A stretch of DNA of 64,000 bases from Eledone cirrhosa (Eukaryota). Position 1 is the stretch's first letter. Every line of letters begins with the position of its first letter. The notes under the pieces were generated by a model. It was not told the DNA's origin, made no database searches, and saw nothing but the letters and a program-made list of their open reading frames with translations. The stretch spans positions 1 through 64,000 of the forward strand of contig CAXHJY010000814.1 of assembly GCA_964016885.1 (NCBI GenBank), given 5' to 3'. Position numbers and translations under genes: made by a program. This document shows positions 6,943 through 40,644 of the stretch, in pieces.

Positions 6943-7927
6943 GTGTGTGTATATATATATATATGTGTGTGTACACATACATAAACACGAGTATAGGATG
7001 TATGTGCTTAGTGTGTGTCTATGTATGTATGTATATATGTATGTATATTTGTATGTATGCATGTATGTATGTATATGTATGTATATTTGTATGTCAGGTC
7101 ACCAGTTGGTGCTACTGGTAACATGTATCCCAGTACAACCTGTCTCATGGTCAGGTCATTGGCGACTAAACTGGCAACCCCACCAAGGTTTCTTGGTGAG
7201 GAGGGTGACTTTGGACATCCTGCAGGAATAAAAACAAAACCTGTCAAAGGGCAAAGGAGCTCTTAAGAGTCAATGGCCATCCAAAATCACCGGGAGAGAT
7301 GACCCCTTAGCCTTTGTCAGGGCAGAATTCTAGGAGAAGGAAAACTCTGATATAACACCTGCAACCCTGATGGTATCCAATGATGTTGACTTGTTCTTCT
7401 TTTTGGTAAATATCATCTTGGTTAAGAGAGTGGGACTGGCTTTGTGCAGTGCCTTTGCTCACTATAAAAGCTTCACGGCACAGGCATCGCTTTATATCTG
7501 GAGATCTCTCTGCACTTGTCGTCACATGGTACCATGGGCCCAGCACTATGTGTCAATAATTGTCACAAGTGTAGTGTTTGTACCAGAGTTTTCAAGTCGC
7601 TGGCTGGACTAAAAAGTCACACTCGTTCAGCGCATCGGTAGGGGTTCTCCTACATGGATATAAAGTAGTGGCCGTACTCGAAAACGAGTTGGCAGCCACC
7701 ATATTTGTATGTATGTATATATGTATGTATATTTGTATGTATATATGTATGTATATTTGTATGTATGTATGTATGTATGCATGTATGTATGTATGCATGT
7801 TTATATGTATGTATGTATGTATATTTGTATGTATATATATATATATATTTTTATGTATATATATGTATATTTGTATGTATGTATGTTCGTATGTATATAT
7901 GTATGAATGTATATTTGTATGTATGTA

Positions 7928-17244: not shown

Positions 17245-18740
17245 ATTTTATTAACAACGATGTACAAAGTAAATAAAGTTTAATAGGAAAAGAAAAGAAA
17301 AATTTAGATTGAGATGACTGGAATGTAAAATAGGTAAATATAGAGAAAGGAGAGAATAAAAGAGAGAAAACGAGATGAGGAGGGGAATGACAAGGACTGT
17401 AGTGTCACAGAAGACTGAGGGGAGGGTGGTTGAGTTCTGGGCCTAGGGCATAGGGGTGGAGAGGCTGTGACCCATGGACAATAGCCTGCGACACCTGCTG
17501 CAACAGTCACCCAACCTCGCCGGGCTCCTTCCTCAGACGGGGCACCAATGTTCTGATCTTGCAGAGGAGGTCGACAGTACGGGGTCCAAATAAGCCTGAG
17601 GTCGACAGTATAGGGTCCAAGTAAGCTTGAGGTCGACTGTACGGGGCCCAAATAAGCCTGAAGTCGACAGTACGGGGCCCAAATAAGCCTGAAGTCGACA
17701 GTATAGGGTCCAAATAAGCCTGAAGTCGACAGTACAGGGCCCAAATAAGCCTGAAGTCGACAGTACAGGGCCCAAATAAGCCTGAAGTCGACAGTACAGG
17801 GCCCAAATAAGCCTGAAGTCGACAGTACAGGGTCCAAATAAGCCTGAAGTCGACAGTACGGGGCCCAAATAAGCCTGAAGTCGACAGTACGGGGCCCAAA
17901 TAAGCCTGAAGTCGACAGTACAGGGCCCAAATAAGCCTGAGGTCGACAGTACAGGGTCCAAATAAGCCTGAAGTCGACAGTACGGGGCCCAAATAAGCCT
18001 GAAGTCGACAGTACGGGGCCCAAATAAGCCTGAAGTCGACAGTACGGGGCCCAAATAAGCCTGAGGTCGACAGTACGGGGCCCAAATAAGCCTGAAGTAA
18101 ACAGCACGGGGCCCAAATAAGGCTGAGGTCAACTGTATGGGGTCCAAATAAGCCTGAGGTCGACAGTACGGGGCCCAAATAAGGCTGAGGTCGACAGCAC
18201 GGGGCCCAAATAAGGCTGAGGTCGACTGTATGGGGTCCAAATAAGCCTGAGGTCGACAGTACGGGGCCCAAATAAGGCTGAGGTCGACAGTACAGGGTCC
18301 AAATAAGCCTGAAGTCGACAGTACGGGGCCCAAATAAGCCTGAAGTCGACAGTACGGGGCCCAAATAAGCCTGAAGTCGACAGTACGGGGTCCAAATAAG
18401 CCTGAAGTCAACAGTACGGGGCCCAAATAAGCCTGAAGTCGACAGTACGGGGTCCAAATAAGCCTGAAGTCGACAGTACGGGGCCCAAATAAGCCTGAAG
18501 TCGACAGTACGGGGCCCAAATAAGCCTGAGGTCTCAACGGCGATTGGTGTGAAATGGAAGCGGCCAGACAGTCCCCTGGTATTTGTTGATTTTCTGTTCT
18601 TGGGCGAGGTGCATCGTGAACTGGGGGTTTAGGTTAGGGTTAGACCGAAGGGACTAAGCTGGAGGCGGAAACATGTGGCACAGAACCAATCTCTGGATCT
18701 CACTGAATTACTTGCTAATGGATTACATTGAGTTCTAGCT
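17245..18740 (-). mobile_element. CRE-like non-LTR retrotransposon 3' fragment with an internal 31-bp array
   Basis: With the array collapsed it reads approx. EQKINKYQGLSGRFHFTPIAVETSGLFGPRTVDLLCKI..LRKEPGEVG*LLQQVSQAIVHG (RLE C-terminus). Confidence 0.75.
17567..18533. repeat. 31-bp minisatellite, 31 copies
   Basis: Unit GAGGTCGACAGTACGGGGCCCAAATAAGCCT; 961 bp between first and last GAGGTC = 31 x 31. Confidence 0.98.
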
Positions 18741-24914: not shown

Positions 24915-26862
24915 TAGCTGTCGAGATACTGCATCCTTTAAAACCTCCATGGAACAAACTACCTGCATCAGTTGTTAGCTGTCGAGACACTGCATCCTTT
25001 AAAACCTCCATGGAACAAACTACCTGCATCAGTTGTTAGCTGTCGAGACACTGCATCCTTTAAAACCTCCATGGTACAAAATACCTCCATCAGTTGTTAG
25101 CTGTCGAGACACTGCATCCTTTAAAACCTCCATGGAACAAACTACCTACAACAGTTGTTAGCTGTCGAGACACTGCATCCTTTAAAACCTCCATCAGTTG
25201 TTAGCTGTCGAGACACTGCATCCTTTAAAACCTCCATGGAACAAACTACCTGCATCAGTTGTTAGCTGTCGAGACACTGCATCCTTTAAAACCTCCATGG
25301 AACAAACTACCTGCATCAGTTGTTAGCTGTCGAGACACTGCAACCTTTAAAACCTCCATGGAACAAACTAGCTGCATCAGTTAGCTGTCGAGACACTGCA
25401 TCCTTTAAAATCTCCATGAAACAAACTACCTGCATCAGTTGTTAGCTGTCGAGACACTGCATCCTTTAAAACCTCCATGGAACAAACTACCTGCATCAGT
25501 TGTTAGCTGTCGAGACACTGCATCCTTTAAAACCTCCATGGAACAAACTAGCTGCATCAGTTGTTAGCTGTCGAAACACTGCATCCTTTAAAACCTCCAT
25601 GGAACAAACTACCTGCATCAGTTGTTAGCTGTTGAGACACTGCATCCTTTAAAACCTCCATGGAACAAACTAGCTGCATCAGTTGTTAGCTGTCGAAACA
25701 CTGCATCCTTTAAAACCTCCATGGAACAAACTACCTGCATCAGTTGTTAGCTGTCGAGACACTGCAACCTTTAAAACCTCCATGGAACAAACTAGCTGCA
25801 TCAGTTAGCTGTCGAGACACTGCATCCTTTAAAATCTCCATGGTACAAACTACCTGCATCAGTTGTTAGCTGTCGAGACACTGCATCCTTTAAAACCTCC
25901 ATGGAACAAACTACCTGCATCAGTTGTTAGCTGTCGAGACACTGCAACCTTTAAAACCTCCATGGAACAAACTAGCTGCATCAGTTAGCTGTCGAGACAC
26001 TGCATCCTTTAAAATCTCCATGGTACAAACTACCTGCATCAGTTGTTAGCTGTCGAGACACTGCATCCTTTAAAACCTCCATGGAACAAACTACCTGCAT
26101 CAGTTGTTAGCTGTCGAGACACTGCAACCTTTAAAACCTCCATGGAACAAACTAGCTGCATCAGTTAGCTGTCGAGACACTGCATCCTTTAAAATCTCCA
26201 TGGTACAAACTACCTGCATCAGTTGTTAGCTGTCGAGACACTGCATCCTTTAAAACCTCCATGGAACAAACTCCCTGCATCAGTTGTTAGCTGTCGAGAC
26301 ACTGCATCCTTTATAACCTCCATGAAACAAACTACCTGCATCAGTTGTTAGCTGTCGAGACACTGCATCCTTTAAAACCTCCATGGAACAAACTACCTGC
26401 ATCAGTTGTTAGCTGTCGAGACACTGCAGCCTTTAAAACCTCCATGGAACAAACTCCCTACATCAGTTGTTAGCTGTCGAGACACTGCAGCCTTTAAAAC
26501 CTCCATGGAACAAACTCCCTACATCAGTTGTTAGCTGTCGAGACACTGCAGCCTTTAAAACCTCCATGGAACAAACTCCCTACATCAGTTGTTAGCTGTC
26601 GAGACACTGCAGCCTTTAAAACCTCCATGGAACAAACTCCCTGCATCAGTTGTTAGCTGTCGAGACACTGCAGCCTTTAAAACCTCCATGCTTCCTGAAA
26701 TTCGCCAACACTATACCTGATATTCCCCCCTCCATACACACCCACGTATACACTTTTCACTTTCCTGACATTTGTACATTATTCTATGTACTATACATGC
26801 ACCTTTGATGGGTTGTAGTGCACCTGAGCACTGTACACAATAATTTCATTATTATTATTATT
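24915..26862 (+). mobile_element. CR1-like LINE 3' end with ~29-copy 61-bp array (24915-26690), 3'UTR and (ATT)n tail; extra 3'UTR copy at 24459-24560
   Basis: Reverse complement of the unit and UTR at 1016-1755. Confidence 0.9.
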
Positions 26863-27050: not shown

Positions 27051-29145
27051 GACTTGTGGAGTTATGTCGGACAGCTGTTGTGGCGTGTAGAACGGATCCG
27101 GCTATCGGCCGAGTCCATAGTGAAGATCGACCCGGGGGTGCTCTCGAACCATCGGGTCGTTCAGGATTGGTGGGGTACCTGAGTGAACCCTGGGTGGTCA
27201 GCCCCCCTATTGGGGATTTTTTCTTGTATTTTTATTATTTTGTTATTGTAATTATTGTTTATACATTGTATATGTACCCCCCCCCCCCCCCCACTGTCCC
27301 AGTCTTTTGTATTGTCCCCTATATGTCGGCCCTTGTGGCCAATAAATGAAATCATTATTATTATTATATATACATATATATATTATCACCCGTAACTCCC
27401 AAGGGGTTGTAGGGATCCATATTGATGTAAGGCCCTTATCACAGCACAAAAAAGCTTCACCATCCCAGATCATATTTCTCTCTATGTGAGTAAGAAGAAC
27501 TAAGCCCCGTGAAACTTGGGAGTCTGGTGTAGCTGGAAGAGAGGATGGTTTGGAGTTAAAGGGCTAACCCCTATATCTGAGGGTGTCGTAATTAGCAATA
27601 ATATCAGAAGCTTTCTTAACTGAACCTAACCTAACCCTCTCTGTTAGCATATCTCTAATGAAATACACTGTCCCTTGTGATTTTATATTTTGAAAATGAT
27701 CAAGACTTTAAAGCGATTTAATAACATAGCTTTCTCGTTATTAAGTTGGTGTTTGGAATATAACTTAAAGGTTCTTACATAAAATTATAATGGAAGGTTT
27801 TAAGATAAATATAAGCACTTTAACCCTTTCATTACCATATTTCTAATGAAAGACACTGTTGGTGTTTGGAACTTAACCCTTTAGCATTTCCATTACTTTA
27901 TATATACTATTATATTTTCATGGTAAAGGCTTTACCTCACATAATTATCTCACATAATATCGAATCTATGAGATTTTGAAAGTATTTATTTTGCGAACAA
28001 TACCTTAACATCAGTTTGAGTGACTGGTTACAGCCAGTTTCAACAGAGAGGGGTAGAGAATTCTGGCCGGTTTGAACATTAAAGGGTTAACAAAGGTTCA
28101 TACATAAAATTATAATGGAAGGTTTTTAGATAAATGAAAACACTTAACAAACAATTTTGAAATATATTTATTATAACAAACATTTGACATTATTGTACAA
28201 TATACATAGATTCTACATAATGTTATACATATGTCAACTATATTTTACAGACAAGTTATACAATGATGGAAATATCAAAAAAACATAAAAACCAAATTAA
28301 GTAATGAAAAAAAAACGGGGGTAAAGAAGGGCAGATGTGTCGTGGCGTTGCTTCATGGCTCGTAACAATAATCTTTCATGCGTGATTTAGTTACCGGTTG
28401 ACCAATCGCAAGTCTCGCATGAATATAAACAACTTCCACCCAAAGAAGACATTTCACACTTCTTTGTTGACTAAACTCTAGTTGCTGCTTTGACTTCAAG
28501 AAGATAACATCCATTTTCCTTTCCGTGTCAACACATTGTAAAAATGTAATGGTAATCAAGAAATATTGGCTAGGGAACACTTTCTTTGTATCAAACACGT
28601 TTTTGTTTATTCACTTTTACGGCATGCCGGCACAACATTTTGTAAACCTGTTTCGGTTGTAAATAAATCATGTGAAAATATTATAAAGCCTTATGATATT
28701 TCTGCCACCAACGAATCTGGCATACACACTAAAAAAAAAAAACGTTGGATGTGATATGGGAAAATGCTTTTCCCAAGGTTCTATCATTTTCCACAACAAC
28801 CAGTGAGTATATCTGACTTAGCTAACTCACTTGCCAACAAGTCATTTCACTTGCTTATAACTGTGTTACAGATTCTCTCCATTTGTGGCAACAAACTACA
28901 ACCAAATAACAACTATTATCAACTTCTTCTATGTTACATTTACTGCTAACAAACATTCATCTTCTTGCTATTGCAACTAAACATACTTTTGCTGGTACAA
29001 CAAAATAACATATCTTCCCTTTGCTAAAGATGTGGCTGTATAGGAAAGTAGTGGAAAGGACTATAAACACCATAAATAAGAAGAGGGGGTAAAGAGCTAG
29101 GACTGTTAGGAAACAGGAGTATAGTGGATACATGTGCAAAGCCTT

Positions 29146-29195
29146 AGTGACGTCACTTCCGCCTAAATATGGAGGCGCCAAATCTTTCCCAGTCT
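29146..29195 (+). promoter_or_regulatory. Compact promoter-like element: CRE palindrome, ETS-like site, TAAATA, CAGT initiator
   Basis: AGTGACGTCACT (29146-29157) overlapping ACTTCCG, TAAATA 29164, CAGT 29190, ATCATCATG at 29231. Confidence 0.45.
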
Positions 29196-29230
29196 CCACA
29201 GAACCTCAAAGATATCCAGACACCATCATC

Positions 29231-29871
29231 ATGAATCCTTCAACCAGCAACAACAGCAACTCAGGTCATCACTTCCAACCTGCCAAGACTGACCAATTGG
29301 TTAACTTTCCCACGTTAAATTATTTTTTTAATGTAATTAAGTAAGAAAGATATTAACATTGAATAAATAATTGATTATTGATAAATAGTTGATTATTACG
29401 AGTAATACCAAATTCAACATAAATGCACCATCATCGGAAAGAATGGCATTTATAACTCGGTATACCGAGTTTCTCTTCAACACACAATCACCATTCCTGA
29501 AATATGTGAGAATATATGGAATACATTGTTCTACCAAGACTTTTTTAATAACCTTGTTGACAATGGATTTCACTCAGATGAGGAATATCTTGCTATTATT
29601 ACAGACGACTATAATAGAAAATGTGCCGAAAAACAGTCCAACGAAGCAAATAAAAACCAACAACATCGATTTGGGACTCCGTCTCCAGCTAGATGTGGGT
29701 CAACACTGGTGTTGTCTCCAGCTAGATGTGGGTCAACACTGGCGTTGTCTCCAGCTAGATGTGGGTCAACACTGCTGTTGTCTCCACCAGAGTCAGACAA
29801 CTCCAATAAAGAGAACCGAGGAATCAATGATGCAGTCTCGTACTGATGCACCTCCGCCAGATCCTTTATAA
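29231..29871 (+). pseudogene. Orphan coding relic with two overlapping open frames and an in-frame 33-bp x3 repeat (29681-29786)
   Basis: Overlapping ORFs 29389-29871 and ~29406-29846; shares S.[DE]EYLA.I.D[DE]Y with the satellite monomer. Confidence 0.45.
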
Positions 29872-31034: not shown

Positions 31035-31272
31035 TTAGGAGCTGGGGGATCCAACATGTAGAAGACCACAAACATGTTTGCCTAGAGGCTAAATGCTTTA
31101 AATTCCTCCATCTCCCTCCCTCCCAGCTTGTCTCCCTTCACCAAAAGGACGGTGCATTGTGCAAAACTCTTATCAAATTAGGAGTATGATATTACATTTT
31201 ACGCACAGTCAGCCAGAAATATATTTAACATATGGTTAGATGTGGGGGAATGTAACCCAATTCAAATAAATA

Positions 31273-31368
31273 GGCGGGAAGATAATGTTGATGGGTCCAA
31301 ACATGTAAGGCGCGAAAAAAATGCTGACAAGTCAGAACATGTTTCAGAGAGAAAAAAGAATATAAATA
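31273..31368 (+). promoter_or_regulatory. Putative viral early promoter: two E2F-like sites plus TATA box
   Basis: GGCGGGAA 31273-31280, GGCGCGAAAA 31309-31318, TATAAATA 31361-31368, upstream of the NS1 relic. Confidence 0.5.
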
Positions 31369-31934
31369 GATGGCATCTCTGCAGCTGCAGCGCAGGCTGA
31401 CAGAGGAACATTGAGGGAACGGCGTTACCCCATTTGACACAAGACTTCCACACACACAACAGACCATAAGCTACGAAGGCCTAAAGAAAAGAGATGCGGA
31501 GATGCTGGCAGAGTTGTCGGTAAGTCATGCCATTACATTTACCATTTTATAACTAGAGTGGACCATACACGACTGACGTTACTAAGAAGCCTATTAATTT
31601 GGACGAGTGTTGCAGAGAACGGGACATTGATTACGGTAGAAATGACATATCAATAGAAGACGCAGACGAAAAACTCATCAAGTGTGCAGATAACGTCGAA
31701 GGGGTGGCATCGTTCATAGTGAAGTCAGCCATAAAACTGAAAGAACTGATGCCACCTGCATCAACAACCACAAGAGACAACTTCAATTACAATGTTTTGT
31801 GCGACGGTGCCAAGTAGGCACTTACACGGAGTAATCCCTAAAGGGAAGAGGCATGGTAGAACTATGCACATAACAAAGGACAGTCACGGGGCAGAAATAC
31901 TTAAACACACCACTGGCTGGTTTGTTAACAAGTA

Positions 31935-33922
31935 ATGCCATTGTCAATGGTCGATAAGCACTATAAAAAGCAAACATCCACGCCAGACTGTCAAAGCTAC
32001 AAGCAGCAGCAAGCCAAGATTCAATTCAACAACGCAGTTTTCCACGACGAAACAAACACTGAAAACCAGATAGGCTACACATGGGTACACCAATTCGAAC
32101 ACCCAAAGGAAATAACTTGGGATGAAGCTCCCAGAATCAACACACCAGCCAACACTCTTGTCCATGTCGAAGAGGGCAGGAAAAATTACCTTATGAAGGT
32201 AATCTACAAACAGCCTTCCATTCTAATATTCCACAAAGCAGCATACAGCTAAATGAAACACTGCCATGATATTCCGCATTTCCACATAATATCGTGGCAC
32301 AAAGACCATCCATCAAACATACACTCTTTCCAAATGTTAAAAAGCCTAACAAAAAACAAAGGTACAAACCCATATCAACTTACAGTGCAGAAAATATTTA
32401 ACCTGTACGGGTTTTGCCAATACCTGACACAGAATGATGTAAGATGGGTTGTCGCAGCGAACAAAATAGACACCAAAAGCCAAAAACTCATGCTCAAACA
32501 ACTAACAAAGACTAGCGAAGAATCAGACGATGACAAGAACAAAACACTACACACAAACAAAACAGTCCGAGGAGCCAAGTACAATTTCATTAAAAAAATG
32601 ATGAAAAGATGTAACTTCACGGACATGGGCGATATCATGTGTTTGGTATTTCAGCAAAGTGAAATACCAAACACAGTGGGATAATATATCAAAATACCCC
32701 CAACTTATTAAACATCATACAAGCTGCAGTGACAAAGACGAACATCGAAACAAAGGCAACCCGTATATGGGAACAAATACAATAAAAAAACTGAATACTT
32801 TACAACTATGACAAATACATACCATGACGTACAAACATTAGACATATAGTATATGTCTAATGTTTGTAAATATAGTATATATCTAATGGTATATGTCATA
32901 TACCATGAATGGATAGATCACAACTTTAATCATGACGACTTCAACCACCACACATTTGAAGTATGTCATAAAATCAACCCAAAGATTAATGGACTACACA
33001 TCACAGGGCCATCAAACAGCGGAAAGATCAATCCGCAACGGCCTTATGAATTGCGGCTGAATGCAATGCCAAGCATCGAACAACTTCACCTTTGGCAGTT
33101 GTATAGACAAAACCCTCATATACACAGATGAAATGTGGTTCTCCGCTAACAACATCTTGGAGGCAAAGTGCATCTTAGAAGGCACCGCCACATACATAAA
33201 CATCAAACACCAAATCATCATCATTTTACATCCAGAATTCTCAATTGTTGTGTTCATAGTGTTTGGCAGTAGTATTTATACTGGTTGGATGCCCTTCCTA
33301 ACACCAACACCAAAATGAACGAATATTAATACGGACACCGTCTCTGTCAACCATTAATGTGGGCCCTTGGAATGTCGTGCTCCACGAAATAGACGGTTTG
33401 AAAAACCGGCTTTTTTACTATGAGACAAGACGTCACATGCCGAAATTAAAAGACTGGGGCCGCATTGACCTAAACCCCGTCATGTGGCTAACGATATGGA
33501 AGCCATCCATAGACAAATATGTCCAAAATGCATATAACGAAACATACCTAACATCAAGATCCAAGCCAAACAAAAGATACAGAGTTAATGAAAAAGATAT
33601 TCTTTCACCAAACAGGAAACAACAAATAGTAGAAGTAAGACACAACATAGAAAAATAATTAGAAACACCAGCAACATCTAAAATGACAGCATTCACACCA
33701 ACAAAAATGACTACGCCATGCGAAATGGACCTAGAACTAGCACAGGCGTGCGTCATACACGATGCAGATATGAGTGGCTGCAGCTTTCAAAGAACAAAAG
33801 AAGAATGGAGCCCCTTACTAATCACACCAACGTTGTGACTATCACACAAACATAAAAATTACTTCCTATGATTAAGAGCTAGAGAATATACACCAACACC
33901 CTTCAAGAGATTTTCACTTTAA
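31935..33922 (+). pseudogene. NS1: Endogenous parvovirus/densovirus-like NS1 (HUH endonuclease + SF3 helicase) pseudogene
   Basis: LIFH...HDIPHFHII (HUH), FCQYLTQ (catalytic Tyr), GLHITGPSNSGK (Walker A, 33006-33026), NNFTFGSCIDKTLIYTDE (Walker B), EAKCILEG...KH (B'), RTPSLSTIN (motif C), LKNRLF (Arg finger); stops and frameshifts; AATAAA at ~34020. Confidence 0.9.
33215..33314 (-). mobile_element. 100-bp SINE-tail insertion into NS1 with 9-bp target-site duplication
   Basis: AACACCAAA at 33206-33214 and 33306-33314; insert has (CAT)n and TGGATGCCCTTCCTAACACC as in the SINE 3' end. Confidence 0.85.
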
Positions 33923-34180
33923 CAGCAAATATTTCGAAGATTTATATAAACAAGATGCTGATCAATTTTTTTACTTATTTCTGTAACTTTAAAATATTTT
34001 ATTCTCTTCGCTGTCGCTTAATAAAAGAATTGAACTTAAATCTTGCCTTTGTTATCTTTTACATTAATATATATATGTATGTATGTATGTATGTAAAAGG
34101 TAAACAGAAATAACAACACAATCAGTACTGTATATATATATATATATATATAATGTAGGACGTGAGTTTTATTGTAGAAC

Positions 34181-35684
34181 AATGAGGCATTTAATGATAC
34201 AATCATATTTTATTTTAAATAACTCATGAAGAAAAATCATATTTTTATCACGCAAAAGTTTTACAACACATTTTATATTTATCGCTTTTTTTCAAGAAAA
34301 TTCTTAAATTTTCAGATTTAAAATTCAGTAGAATGTTCTCGATTAGGTTTAAGGTAACTTCTAAGGACTATTAAAAACATTACGTCATTATTTGTCTGAC
34401 GACCATCCTGTAAACATTGATAACCGTCCTGTAAACATTGACAATATGGGGAAAAATAAACTGATTGATCAAGACCTCTGTAAACGCATTGTAGACCTTC
34501 ATACAAATGTTGGTTATAGAAAGATATCTTGTCAGTTAAATGTGCCATTGAGTTCAGTTGGTACTATAATTCGTCACTGGAAATCTCATCATTCCATCTG
34601 TCCTCTAATTAGTTCTGGTCGTCCGAGAAAGATAACGGAACGTGCAGCTCGGTTATTGACGAGAAACGTTGGCAGCAACGAACCCCGGTGTACTCTTAAA
34701 AATCTTCAGGATGACCTAGAAGGAAGTGGAGTAAAAGTGAGCACAGATACAATTAGTCGCTCACTTCGTCGATATGATATCTTCTCGAGGTCTCCAAGGA
34801 AAACACCACTTCTTACGAGGAAACACGTTCTTCCTCGATTAAACTTTGCAAATGAACATCTCATCAAACCTGCATCGTTTTGGGAAGATGTACTTTAGTC
34901 GGACGAAAGAAAATTTGAACTTTTTGGTCGAAATGCTGTGGCAAAAGTCTGGAGAAAGAAAGGTACTGAATATTCGCCAAAGAATACTATTCCAACTGTA
35001 AAATTTGGAGGTGGATCAATCATGGTCTGGGGTTGCTTTAGTGCCACAGGTGTAGGAAATATTGAAATACTAGAAGGAAGAATGGAGGTATTTATTATAG
35101 AGGTATTTTGCAAAGGAATTTACATCAAAGTGTACATTCTCTCAGCTTAAAGCCAGGTTGGTTTTTTTCAACAAGATAACGATCCAAAGCATACTGCAAA
35201 GCTAACACAATCTTGGTTAAGTACGAATGGAATAAATGTTCTAAAATGGCCAAGTCAGTCTCCAGATATTAACCCGATCAAAAAATTTGTGGAGAGAACT
35301 GAAACTCAGAATTCAAAAAAGGAAACCCCAAAATATCCCTGAACTAAAGAAAATTTGTTGTGAAGAATAAAAATATTAGCCAAGAAACATGCAAGAAGTT
35401 TGTAGGAGGCTACTCCAAACGCCTACAGGCTGTAATTAGCAACAAAGGTTACGCTACGAAATATTAAGAGATGATTTAATAAATGTGTTGTAAACTTTTG
35501 CGTTATAAAAATATTGATTTTTCTTCACGAGTTATTTCCTTGTTATTTTTTTTTAAATATGATTGTATCATTAAATACCTCATTATAAGTTCTATCAGCA
35601 GTTAAATTTTCATTACCCTAACTTTATTAAAAATTCCTAAAACCACATTTTTCCTAATATGTTGTAAACTTTTGTGGGGCACTG
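34181..35684 (+). mobile_element. Tc1-family (DD34E, IR/DR-type) transposon; outer part of left TIR missing; transposase pseudogene 34446-35467
   Basis: [44 protein letters not shown](K) with 34-residue spacing; right TIR ends CACTG-TA and contains two TGTTGTAAACTTTTG direct repeats. Confidence 0.95.
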
Positions 35685-35721
35685 TATATATACATGAATA
35701 TACGTATATATATACACATAT

Positions 35722-35770
35722 CTGATGAGAATGCAAATATCGGATGATATTTGTTTTTGAAATGCGCATA
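35722..35770 (+). ncRNA. Minimal Penelope-type hammerhead-like motif
   Basis: CTGATGA-G, stem II CAAATATC-GGAT-GATATTTG, GAAA, palindromic stem III ATGCGCAT-A; stem I not evident. Confidence 0.55.
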
Positions 35771-35954
35771 ATAAAATACATGGAACTTTTTTAACCATCT
35801 TTATATTTCTTCTTATATACTCCAGTCCAATAAACTGTTGAGTGCTACTTATCCGATATTTGCATTGCTTTATTGTTCTACAATAAAACTCACCTCCTAC
35901 ATTATATATATATATACATACATATACTGTACCGATTGTGTTGTTATTTCTGTG

Positions 35955-36561
<607 letters not shown>

Positions 36562-36592
36562 TTTATATATATGTATATATGAATATAACATA

Positions 36593-36797
36593 TGATGACG
36601 TCATCACCAGCGAGCCAGCGCTCGCAGGGAAAATAATTATGAGATTGAAATCATTGGTTACGTGACTGACACTTTTCAAATCATCACTTATGCAGTTAAG
36701 TAACAAAAAATTAATGAAGGCACCACCAGTGCAAGGGCTGCGTCGATGTCAACTCTATGTTGTTCTATTTAAAACCAGTCCTGTTGGCAGTGCAATG
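36593..36797 (+). promoter_or_regulatory. Promoter-like region upstream of the PLA2 relic
   Basis: TGATGACGTCATCA palindrome 36593-36606, TATTTAAAA 36766-36774, CAGT ~36788, ATG 36795. Confidence 0.4.
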
Positions 36798-37160
36798 TCG
36801 CAGGAACGCGGTTGCCCCTTCAGCAGGGGCGCCCCTGAACAGACGTAGACAGAAAAAAAAAACATATACACCAGGAAACACATTAGACTTAGCAGCAAAA
36901 CCACATGACTTGGACTACAACAATCCAGACAAATAATTTATCAACGCCACAATACGAAGCAGACCGACTGGGATAATTGCAAGCGGAGCAATCGCTGCAA
37001 AACATTATCTGGGACTTGATAACTACTTCTGGGGTACCCCAGAGCGTCAACATACTTAGCCTGACATTTCTAATAATAATCAGCCTCTACGTGATATGGG
37101 TGAAATGGGGCCATTATCAATCGATTTCTCAGTACGGATGGCAGGGAACACATATCGGAC
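36795..37160 (+). pseudogene. Parvovirus-type phospholipase A2 (VP1u-like) relic
   Basis: Frame of 36871: GAPLNRRRQKKKTYTPGNTLDLAAKPHDLDYNNPDK*FINATIRSRPTGIIASGAIAAKHYLGLDNYFWG; P.N.LD.AA+.HD..Y with HD at 36904-36909; Ca-binding YxGPG loop not intact. Confidence 0.75.
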
Positions 37161-37164
37161 CAGA

Positions 37165-37645
37165 CATACCACCACCAACACTCACCATCTTCCTTTCCTC
37201 ATTACCTACCACCCCGCACCTCATGCGGCTCGTCCACGACCTCCAGTCAGACCCCTCCACCTCCACTGAACTCACACCCCTCCACTCATTCAAGCGCGAA
37301 CGCAACCTCCGGAAACTTCTCATCCATAGCTCCCTTACTCCTCACACCACAGACACCATCACCCTCCACCTCCACTGAACTCACACCCCTCCACTCATTC
37401 AAGCGTGAACGCAACCCCCGGGTCTTCCTCATCCATAGCTCCCTTCCTCCTCACATCAACACCTTCCACCTAACTCACACCACTCCGGAACTTCATCCAT
37501 AGCACCCTTCCTCCGCACATCACACACACCAGCACCCTCCACCCAACACACACCCTCTATCTCCACCCAACACACACCCTCTACCTCCACCCAACACACA
37601 CCCCTCTACCTCCACCCAACACACACCCCTCCACTCATTCAAGAC
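37165..37645 (+). mobile_element. Penelope-like element RT/GIY-YIG linker fragment with tandem sub-repeats
   Basis: LPFLITYHP ... DLQSDPSTS..PLHSFKRERNLRKLLIHSSL matches the PLE linker P+..TYHP / L+.DP / +R..NL+..L+.S. Confidence 0.7.
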
Positions 37646-37649
37646 ACAA

Positions 37650-40644
37650 ACTTTGAAAACTAAGCAACACATCAATTTATACAACAACAAACATAGCGTT
37701 ACTCTCTCCGTCACTCTTCCCTCTCTCTACAATAGATTATTCCCCCCTCTCTATAATTTAACTGCTTTACTCTCTTCATGCTTCGAGGTTTAACACACCT
37801 CCTTATGGTTTCTTAGCTTCACTCTCTCCATCGCTCTTCCCTCTCTCTATAATAGATCTTTCCCCCCTCTTCGTTCAGAAACGCGAAAAAAACTTTGATA
37901 ATTAAGCAACACATAAATTTATACAACAGACAGTCATAACGATGCTCATACATCAAATAACAAAACTTAAAAAGCCGATAACACTACTCATTTGGCTGAT
38001 AACAAAAATCAACGAAAGCAGCACTGACAGCATCATTTCAGCAGAAATACCCAACCCAAAATTGGACAGAGAACTCCACAACATCGTCACTGTTCACATG
38101 GTTCATGGGCCATGCGGGAATGGTTTCAATATGAATTCGCCATGAATTAAAGAAAGAAAGTCCACCAAGAGGTATCCTAGGCCATTCCTCCAAGAAACTC
38201 AGACGGGTGGCGTCAGTTATCCATTATACCGCTGCAGGAAGCCAACGGACAGAGGAATTGTTGTGATAACACCACATCACCACGTCGACAAGCGGTGCAT
38301 TGTACCCTACTGCCCACTTCTGCTTAAAATGTTTAACGCCCACATTAACGTTGAATACTGCCACTCCGTCAAATCAATAAAGTATGTCTGCAAGTTCATC
38401 AATAAGGGGTCCGATGCTGCGTCCTTCGGTCTTACAATGCAGAACAGCCGATACATCAGCAGTAATGAAACGTTCTCACAATTCTTACACTTTACAATAT
38501 ACCATAACTACCCCCCAATCAAACAGTTGGCGGTGCACCTTGAAAACGGTCAAAGAGTCTACTTCACCGCTGCTGAGATAGCAAAGGAACCCAAGGACAC
38601 CACACTTACGGCATTTAAGTTATTCCAAAACGATCCCTTCGCCAAGACCCTCTTCTACTTTCAGGTGCCATCATACTACACATGGAACACAGACAACAGA
38701 ATTTGGTTTAGAAGGGTGAAAGGACAACCCGTTGACGGACATCCAGACATTAAAATGTCCCCAACCCTTGGGAGAGTGTACACCATTAATACCAACAGGA
38801 ATGCTTTTAATCTCCGCCTTCTACTGCATGAGGTGGTAGGACCAACATCTTTCGACGATCTGAAAACAATCAACGGAGAGACTTGTACTTCATTCCGCGC
38901 AGCCTGCCTTAGATGGGGTCTACTGGAAGATGGCACTCAGTGGGATGCGACATTGGCGGAGGCAGCTACAACACGCTCAGTGCGAACTCTTCGGCAACTC
39001 TTTGCGGTGCTACTGCAGACATGCGAGTTAAGCGACCCTGTATCCTAATGGGACAAATACAAAGAGGACCTTTCCGATGACAACATACACCAAGGACAAC
39101 TGCTACTCCCTCATTCCGACGTACGACTCAGCGACGAATTCTTCAACAAAGATCTCATTGACATCGAGGACAAAATCCTAACTGCCGGCGGAAATCACCT
39201 TCCATTCTATGGACTGCCAAAAGTTCAGCGAACGGGCTCAGAGAAACTTCCGAAGCGCATAATTCAGGAAACTGCCTACAACATCGATGCCCTCAAACTG
39301 TTCATCAACGAAAACGAGCCGAAATTGTTGCAGGACCAACAGCGGGCGCGACAGCAAAAAGGAATCGCCCGGGCTGTGGCGGCTTCTGGGATTGCTGCAA
39401 CTCTGCTGCCCGGAGGGAGGACAGCTCATTTCGCATTTAAACTACCATTCAACACGACTTCAGACGACACAATAACCTGCAACATCATCAAGGACTCTGA
39501 CAAAGCGGAAGTCTTGATTGTGTGGGACGAATGCACAATGGCCCATAAAGGATCCCTTGAGGCGTTAGACAGGACCCTACGAGACATCAGGGAATGCAAC
39601 CGGCCGATGGGAGGAGTACCTCTACTGCTGTCTGGCAATTTTCGACAAACTCTTCCAGTTGTTCCAAAAGCCACCAGGGCCGACACTGTGGGGGCTTGCA
39701 TTAAATCATCTCCCCTGTGGCAGGAAGTGACAACTTGACCCTCACAACAAACATGAGAGCCCAACTGCTCGGCGACCGCTCATCAGCAGACTTCTCAAAG
39801 GTCCTCTTAAAAGTTGGTGACAGCACTGCACCTTCAGATGCAGCTGGAGAAATGGCAGTCTCGCAAGTAAGCACTGTTGTCGACACTCTTGACGACCTCA
39901 CAGCCTCTGTCTTTCCCGATATGGCCATCAACTACAAAAACACGAGTCGTTTGTGTGATAGAGCCATATTGGCTCCCAAAAATGTCTCCGTTGCAAAAAT
40001 CAATGAGGACCTTCTGCAATGCATTCCTGGAAACCTCCGTACCTACAAATCTGTTGACAAAGATGAGGTTGACGATTTTCCAACAGAATTCCTCAATTTC
40101 TTGGACCTCTCTGGACTGCCACCTCATTAACTGCGCGTCAAAGTTGGGTCTCCAGTGATGCTGTTGAGGAACCTGGAACCACCACGTCTCTGCAACGGAA
40201 CACGGTTAGTGGCAAGAAACCTCCTGCCGCATGTAATTGAAGCCACAATTCTCACGGGCTGCGGCACTGGGGAAAACGTCTTCATACCCAGAATACCATT
40301 AACTCCATCAGGTATGGAATGCCCCTGTACTCTGCGCCGACTTCAATTCCCCGTTAAACTTTGCTTCGCGGTGTCAATCAACAAGTCTCAAGGCCAAACG
40401 CTATAAACAGCATGCCTACATTTAGCCCAGCCGTGCTTCTCACATGGCCAATTATATGCCGCATGCTCAAGACTTATTCATACTTGCGCCCAAAGGCAGA
40501 ACAAAAAATGTGGTCTACATAGAGGTGTTGTGACTCCTCTATTCAGCACCACTACAGTCTTGCCGGTCTGACATATGGTGAGTAGATGCTATTGTTGTAC
40601 TTTAAAGCAATTAAACTCCGAGCAATGGCGGGCACTTCTGCTAG
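37650..40644 (+). mobile_element. Helitron (5' end not defined) with Rep/Pif1 helicase pseudogene ~37970-40533 and canonical 3' end
   Basis: ISAEIP..HMVHGPCG, VPY.PLL.K.FNAHINVE.C.SVKSIKY, SGIAATLLPGGRTAH, IVWDECTM, FRQTLPVV, MLLRNL..LCNGTRL, QFP..INKSQGQTL, FSHGQLY; 3' CCGAGCAATGGCGG hairpin then CTAG|T at 40641-40645. Confidence 0.96.

Follow-up and report, generated by a model that had tools for sequence, protein, structure and literature searches.

The flagged stretch lies on the plus strand of the 64,000 nucleotides of DNA analysed here (the window) and is, as read from its sequence, the degenerate beginning of a parvoviral capsid gene, comprising a VP1u PLA2 and a few following residues. 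At slightly better than even odds (a probability of roughly 0.55), this VP relic (PLA2-VP) and an NS1 relic found upstream (NS1-A) are parts of one cephalopod parvovirus genome in which NS preceded VP on the same strand and which was later split by transposons. The locus is likely to represent the remains of a little-studied cephalopod virus lineage, the layout of which may differ from those of known parvoviruses. A VP1u PLA2 relic is ordinary when considered alone; it is the layout that counts. In 2016, only fragments were reported of the mollusc parvovirus sequences that lean to the vertebrate subfamily, whereas here, NS and VP parts are seen side by side, together with likely signals. New here are a second PLA2 relic that precedes NS1 (PLA2-N) and a fragment of a second NS1 lineage (NS1-B), both missing from the initial annotation. 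Because every viral frame is broken today, the locus is most likely an inert fossil.

The VP1u PLA2 relic and its relatives

PLA2-VP spans positions 36826..37059 (+), in a frame that opens at 36595. The relic includes PGNTLDLAAKPHDLDY at 36871-36918, retains the HD dyad and the following D..Y, and is interrupted by a single in-frame stop at 36934-36936, after which FI...GAIAAKHYLGL is read; the third helix extends to ~37040 and a closing stop is found at 37057-37059. The initial annotation had described a frame outside the ORF track with a PLA2 core, an internal stop and GAIAAKHYLGL, and this was confirmed. Across all six frames of the window, the pattern N.LD.AA..HD..Y has a single occurrence, versus none in 100 dinucleotide shuffles. 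The YxGPG calcium-loop segment, invariant among the relatives of PLA2-VP, is unrecognisable in the window copy and could not be aligned in any of the three upstream frames. Direct comparison with Pfam, a check proposed in the initial annotation, returned no match for any of three versions of the relic, such that the assignment rests on homologues; nor did a sequence-based comparison of PLA2-VP with the PDB yield a match.

When PLA2-VP, with the stop read as X, served as query in a phmmer search of 1.84 billion representative proteins, 10 matches were obtained (best E 9e-9). Seven of these, including the four best (E 9e-9 to 3e-6), carry PF08398 above cut-off and share 44-51% identity with PLA2-VP; one, P0003, is an Octopus vulgaris protein (CAI9735766.1). 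The other three (P0005, P0007 and P0010) were discarded as unrelated repetitive bacterial-type proteins. A VP-family profile built from six of the seven relatives and two cluster members scored PLA2-VP at 70.9 bits, as compared to at most 6.8 bits in 1000 shuffles, a comparison that is partly circular. A weak match of P0008 to AdSDV_VP1 (E 0.006) was not transferred to the VP family, as P0008 aligns with its closer relatives over the PLA2 only.

In the relatives, the PLA2 is fused to VP, lying N-terminal to the VP region, and the sequences continue past the second Met into this VP-type region. When the VP-family profile was compared with the parvoviral VP1 chain 9me0, one collinear stretch running from the PLA2 into the barrel strands was obtained (E 4e-10). 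With the two other PDB chains shown, the capsid part of the profile scored below zero, and that part alone gave no significant match to the PDB, where matches of the VP family are biased to vertebrate viruses. Atlas offered leads only for the VP relatives (VP1_2 0.87), while two AlphaFold models were of low confidence (pLDDT 28.7 and 33.7). The last recognisable VP piece in the window is found at 37136..37174 (+), in a shifted frame; aligned locally to P0001 and P0003 (p 0.002 for each, 500 shuffles), it corresponds to the sequence that the relatives have behind their second Met. After position 37174, the remainder of the capsid gene, including a single jelly-roll capsid, is absent from the window.

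The PLA2X of adintoviruses and Polintons resembles the PLA2 of parvoviral VP1 (PMC8502044), and PLA2-VP could be read as such a PLA2X, unconnected to parvoviruses. This reading is largely refuted and scarcely credible, given that the closest relatives run into a VP-type region, a piece of which the window retains (37136-37174), and that no Polinton gene (pPolB, integrase or capsid genes) was detected among 211 frames of at least 55 codons in 1-41.2 kb, a scan that ran up to the start of the satellite and set aside frames dominated by three residues. The parvoviral VP1u-type PLA2 that the initial annotation had proposed, as opposed to a Polinton one, is thus upheld.

Scanning of metagenomes with the VP family returned two unrelated loci, neither of which matches the NS1 queries. 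These are small contigs (L001:30-1478 and L002:28-1554) in which a stand-alone PLA2 ORF comes after a capsid-like one. In L003:711-2105, a PLA2-like motif is seen at the N-terminus of an S-domain coat protein. All three look like non-parvoviral small viruses with a viral PLA2.

Examination of the region preceding the VP relic revealed features of a promoter-like stretch at 36588..36800 (+), of presumably viral origin and function. This leader, found on a single-copy contig (36590-37282), contains a 12-bp palindrome at 36594-36605 that includes TGACGTCA (36596), a short GCGAGC/GCTCGC stem and a TATA-like box, TATTTAAA, at 36766. TGACGTCA is present in two copies in the 64 kb (29148 and 36596), versus 0.49 expected. 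Folding of the palindromes at 36588-36630 gave a z of -2.3, with 6 of 200 shuffles being equally good, a modest signal that was seen in one of nine stretches folded. As such, the CRE palindrome, TATA-like box and ATG that the initial annotation had placed before the relic are all present, but the ATG at 36795, which follows the TATA-like box, is in a different frame from PLA2-VP and closes after 17 codons. The in-frame ATG of PLA2-VP, at 36757, lies upstream of the box.

NS1 relics and a second PLA2-like relic upstream

NS1-A occupies positions 31929..33838 (+) and is broken by several stops, frameshifts and a repeat insertion at ~33214-33304. Its SF3 helicase, with Walker A at 33006-33026, matches Parvo_NS1 (E 4e-5 for the window piece; E 8e-16 for a relative, P0028) and AAV Rep (E 1e-7). 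HUH-like motifs, namely, HFHII at 32277 and YLTQ at 32421, lie 48 codons apart; for this N-terminal part, Atlas gave Rep_OBD as a lead (0.92), with recognition falling below the Atlas bar, and no matching Pfam hit for HUH was obtained. A word-index homologue search with the N-terminal part, weak as a negative, found none. The relatives of NS1-A form three clusters with 53 members, with identities of 47-77% among the 32 listed (P0025-P0056). A 1988-nt contig from the same sample matches NS1-A at ~79% (window 32520-32781), pointing to at least one further copy of the NS1-A family in the genome. A 68-nt imperfect palindrome is found within NS1-A at 32815-32882, where the relatives align poorly.

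By eye, the NS1-A helicase matches Sepia and Euprymna NS fragments of PMC5013282, the best BLAST match of which was reported there as turkey parvovirus (Parvovirinae). In the same survey, an O. vulgaris VP transcript had AAV as best match, and the mollusc sequences were nearer to vertebrate parvoviruses, yet outside known genera. Accordingly, the premise of the initial annotation that this NS1 is hamaparvoviral finds no support here, and the presence of a VP1u PLA2 beside NS1-A is unsurprising, since the matching cephalopod NS fragments had best matches in Parvovirinae.

NS1-A is followed by ~210 nt of 3' UTR-like DNA (33839..34050, +) with an AATAAA at 34020 and a T-rich downstream run. That this AATAAA is followed by downstream sequence and not by a poly(A) tail points to DNA integration. 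Host insertions then separate NS1 from VP (34067..36587, +). These consist of minisatellite-type repeat ends, a Tc1 with a nested repeat, a 49-bp array, a SINE-like repeat and (TA)n. The initial annotation had reported Tc1, SINE and microsatellite DNA between NS1 and the relic; all were found, the 3' UTR-like DNA, nested repeat and 49-bp array being additions. The truncated VP is followed by a C/A-rich repeat and a Helitron-type PIF1 helicase relic (37175..40403, +).

Elsewhere in the window, a tandem array with a unit of ~1.63 kb extends behind the Helitron relic (40700-64000), with related C/A-rich sequence at 37248-37640. SINE-like copies occur across the window on both strands. Two long minisatellites are found, at 17304-18633 and at 25000-26690, the latter with ~25 copies of a 61-bp unit, and a single C2H2 zinc-finger match (E 6e-5) is seen amid microsatellites at 7468-7638 (+).

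PLA2-N, a second PLA2-like relic, lies at 31527..31817 (+), ending ~110 nt before the NS1-A frame. Its 96 codons, from ATG to stop, contain one in-frame stop. PLA2-N matches PF08398 with 27.3 bits (cut-off 23.9; E 4.6e-6) and, by hhalign, the VP family with an E of 1.3e-6. An Arg is found in place of the catalytic His, such that the protein may have been inactive already in the virus, or may have decayed later. With 14 of 56 aligned residues being identical, PLA2-N is not a recent duplicate of PLA2-VP. No close homologues of PLA2-N were found in a word-index search restricted to lengths of 52-168, again weak as a negative, and a PLA2 tree contained no supported inner branch. When PLA2s with a CC helix were sought by motif, 14 loci were returned, none of which match NS1-A or NS1-B. 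A short ORF with GCG and D.CC..HD..Y motifs is common to seven viral contigs (L010-L016) and, in our reading, resembles a prokaryotic-type PLA2. A short frame at 31789-31932 (+) overlaps the end of PLA2-N and contains an HLHGVI motif like a second HUH motif; this frame has no Pfam match.

The PLA2-N leader (31070..31526, +) is single-copy and presents signals that may have been used, namely, CCAAT at 31257, TATAAA at 31361 and GGTAAGT at 31519. The last of these, just before the PLA2-N ATG, is a consensus splice donor and the sole copy in 28.2-37.3 kb.

The second parvoviral piece, NS1-B (29100..29870, +), matches O. bimaculoides KOF81493 by eye (PMC5013282 supplement), for which an iteradensovirus was given as best match in that survey. 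As NS1-B has no Pfam match, its identity rests on this by-eye match. The NS1-B frame, read from 29389 (fragment 29389-29870), opens with the C-terminal end of the SF3 helicase and scores 0.5 bits against the NS1-A profile. The NS1-B leader contains a promoter-like site (TGACGTCA at 29148; TGACGTCACTTCCG) 240 nt upstream of the frame. A 33-bp repeat in 3.2 copies is found inside the NS1-B region (29681-29786). The stretch at 28300-28930 is moderately repeated (summed depth 230-1830, run X1) and contains CCAAT and TATAAA; it has neither a Pfam match nor a second copy in the window.

One virus or several

Several observations support the assignment of NS1-A and the VP relic to one genome. Only repeats are found between the 3' end of NS1-A and the VP leader, and NS1-A, like the VP family, leans to cephalopod sequences of Parvovirinae-like type. 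The viral contig pieces are at similarly low depth (8.7-14, run X1). Composition agrees as well, in that the NS1-A pieces have an AT skew of 0.25-0.37 and a GC content of 0.39-0.41, with the corresponding VP values being 0.28 and 0.42; the intervals overlap those of NS1-B. When contigs or loci linking the NS1-A family to the VP family were sought, none were found in scans of viral contigs with four protein queries or in the NS1 and VP metagenome scans; the viral contig scans, for which the relic, the C-terminal piece of NS1 and two alignments served as queries, gave one confirmed stretch in one scan and no locus. The initial annotation had taken NS and VP as belonging to one virus. Here, a common origin is likely, but no linked copy was found and the shared orientation is weak evidence, because the neighbouring transposons are on the plus strand as well; indeed, Tc1, Helitron and LINE-endonuclease pieces and NS1-B are all on this strand, as are all coding relics in 29-40 kb. 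We infer the common origin of NS1-A and VP and the use of their promoters, and, from the O. vulgaris protein P0003 and the cephalopod matches, a cephalopod host.

In the favored scenario of a single NS-then-VP genome, the VP1u PLA2 likely entered the germline together with the upstream NS1, and later transposon insertions likely moved the VP relic 2.5 kb away and truncated VP. While the virus was alive, its VP1u PLA2 would have acted in endosomal escape, the established role of the enzyme in parvoviruses (PMC10267136; PMC13426907). The AATAAA at 34020 would have set the end of NS transcripts, and a CRE/TATA promoter of its own would have driven VP; NS and VP were likely separate transcription units.

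A second NS1 lineage is found 2 kb upstream, showing that the region collects viral pieces. As such, the possibility of independent insertions at a hot spot was considered, with VP stemming from an integration other than that of NS1-A, or with two viruses lying in tandem on the same strand (i.e., NS1-B with PLA2-N as VP1u, followed by NS1-A with PLA2-VP). The proximity of the two NS1 lineages, within 2 kb of each other, and the location of all coding relics of 29-40 kb on one strand agree with such a history, as do the start of PLA2-N at a Met, like that of VP1 P0008, its closest row (35%), and the occurrence of TGACGTCA upstream of both NS1-B and VP, but not of NS1-A. By contrast, PLA2-N and NS1-A were recovered on one repeat-free contig (31523-33274) in all three contig runs, from one sample, no capsid-type sequence was found behind PLA2-N, and the VP family and NS1-A lean to Parvovirinae-like sequences, whereas the counterpart of NS1-B has an iteradensovirus as best match. 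On balance, independent insertions are considered unlikely, with odds well short of even.

PLA2-N is about as likely to have been part of this NS cassette as to be the VP1u of a second virus, the NS1 end of which would lie at 29.4 kb. One can thus tentatively envisage, at odds clearly short of even, a single cephalopod parvovirus with two PLA2 genes, one encoding the capsid-bound VP1u and the other, at the front of the NS cassette, a small PLA2-like protein that is non-structural. In such a cassette, unspliced RNA would give rise to PLA2-N, while splicing from the donor at 31519 would skip PLA2-N and lead to NS1. The position of this donor would be compatible, too, with a switch between VP1 and VP2 in a second virus, and two adjacent viruses are the main rival to the two-PLA2 virus. 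Were PLA2-N to belong to the NS cassette, this would present a further arrangement, with capsid-bound and non-structural copies; were two tandem viruses involved instead, the locus would be a small cluster of endogenous viral pieces, of moderate interest. The placement of PLA2-N recalls the NS3 slot of ambisense densoviruses, a likeness for which a literature search found no paper.

The presence of separate NS and VP signals also raises the possibility of a segmented virus like AdSDV (the segmented densovirus of Acheta domesticus), with NS and VP segments of ~3 kb, each with its own promoter and termini, having integrated side by side. The NS cassette indeed measures ~3 kb, with a poly(A) signal of its own at the end, the VP cassette opens with two short palindromes (z -2.3), and several VP relatives are found on contigs of 3.2 kb. 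At the same time, the fold signal is modest (one of nine stretches), other VP and NS1 relatives are found on contigs of 4.5-4.9 kb, with similar sizes for VP and NS1 (4902/4581 and 4893/4540 nt, as a lead only), and no sequence is shared between the NS1-A and VP leaders, the ends of which may be lost, whereas AdSDV segments share their termini. The size of these contigs says little, as many of the relatives are frameshifted and are probably genomic relics. The segmented organisation suggested in the initial annotation thus finds no shared left-end sequence to draw on and is deemed improbable. Iteradensoviruses have a same-strand genome in which NS and VP are polyadenylated separately and the VP unit has a promoter to itself; in such a layout, separate NS and VP signals would need no segments.

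Ambisense densoviruses would likewise accommodate both an NS with a poly(A) signal of its own and a VP promoter near palindromes; the VP half would then have been brought to the plus strand by a replicative dimer or by inversion at a later time. Such a history requires an extra rearrangement, and no minus-strand relic of the VP family was found anywhere in the window, making an ambisense genome a very remote prospect when set against the single same-strand genome favored here.

Comparison with known systems

A literature search for a cephalopod parvoviral element or a two-PLA2 parvovirus, in which subscription journals were mostly not covered, returned nothing beyond the 2016 survey. NS1-A and NS1-B match, by eye, cephalopod sequences reported there (Francois et al., PMC5013282; Sepia FO193416, Euprymna ESTs, O. 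vulgaris JR446908 and O. bimaculoides KOF81493). In the available part of that source, these are short single-gene fragments, presented without genome layout, promoter or PLA2 arrangement.

PLA2-VP and its relatives are like the VP1u PLA2 (PF08398) of Parvovirinae and Densovirinae in that the PLA2 is N-terminal to the shared capsid region and has the HD dyad and a third helix with a KH.LGL end. They differ in that PLA2-VP is broken and truncated in the window, and in that a second PLA2 precedes NS1. In the former Hamaparvovirinae (Hamavirinae, Hepanvirinae and Penbrevirinae), VP lacks a PLA2, as stated in PMC11357303, whereas the VP relatives considered here carry a fused PLA2. The PLA2X of adintoviruses and Polintons is of the same PLA2 motif family (PMC8502044), but the PLA2-VP relatives have, by eye, no pX-type tail, and no polymerase, integrase or capsid neighbours are found among the 211 frames scanned.

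AdSDV shows that NS and VP may occupy separate units and that a PLA2 may be non-structural (PMC10267136). In AdSDV, the PLA2 is encoded on the VP segment by an ORF of its own, downstream of the capsid ORF, whereas here, the PLA2 is N-terminal to VP.

According to PMC13426907, PLA2 is a derived feature of two subfamilies that has been transferred only rarely (AdSDV and megaparvoviruses). In megaparvoviruses (SwaBA-MePV-1 and beetle EVEs) described there, a PLA2 ORF lies 5' of NS1 on the same strand, as does PLA2-N, for which a common origin with NS1-A is presumed. In that description, VP1 of megaparvoviruses is without PLA2, NS1 is separated from the PLA2 by a large unknown ORF, and a splice donor ends the PLA2 ORF; here, the downstream VP has its own PLA2 (if of the same virus), the gap is of ~110 nt, and the donor precedes the ORF. 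Should the two-PLA2 virus be real, its layout would be without counterpart among the parvovirus types compared, as these are described in the sources available, in a lineage that leans to vertebrate parvoviruses, and would bear on the origin of the parvoviral PLA2 and on its role outside the capsid.
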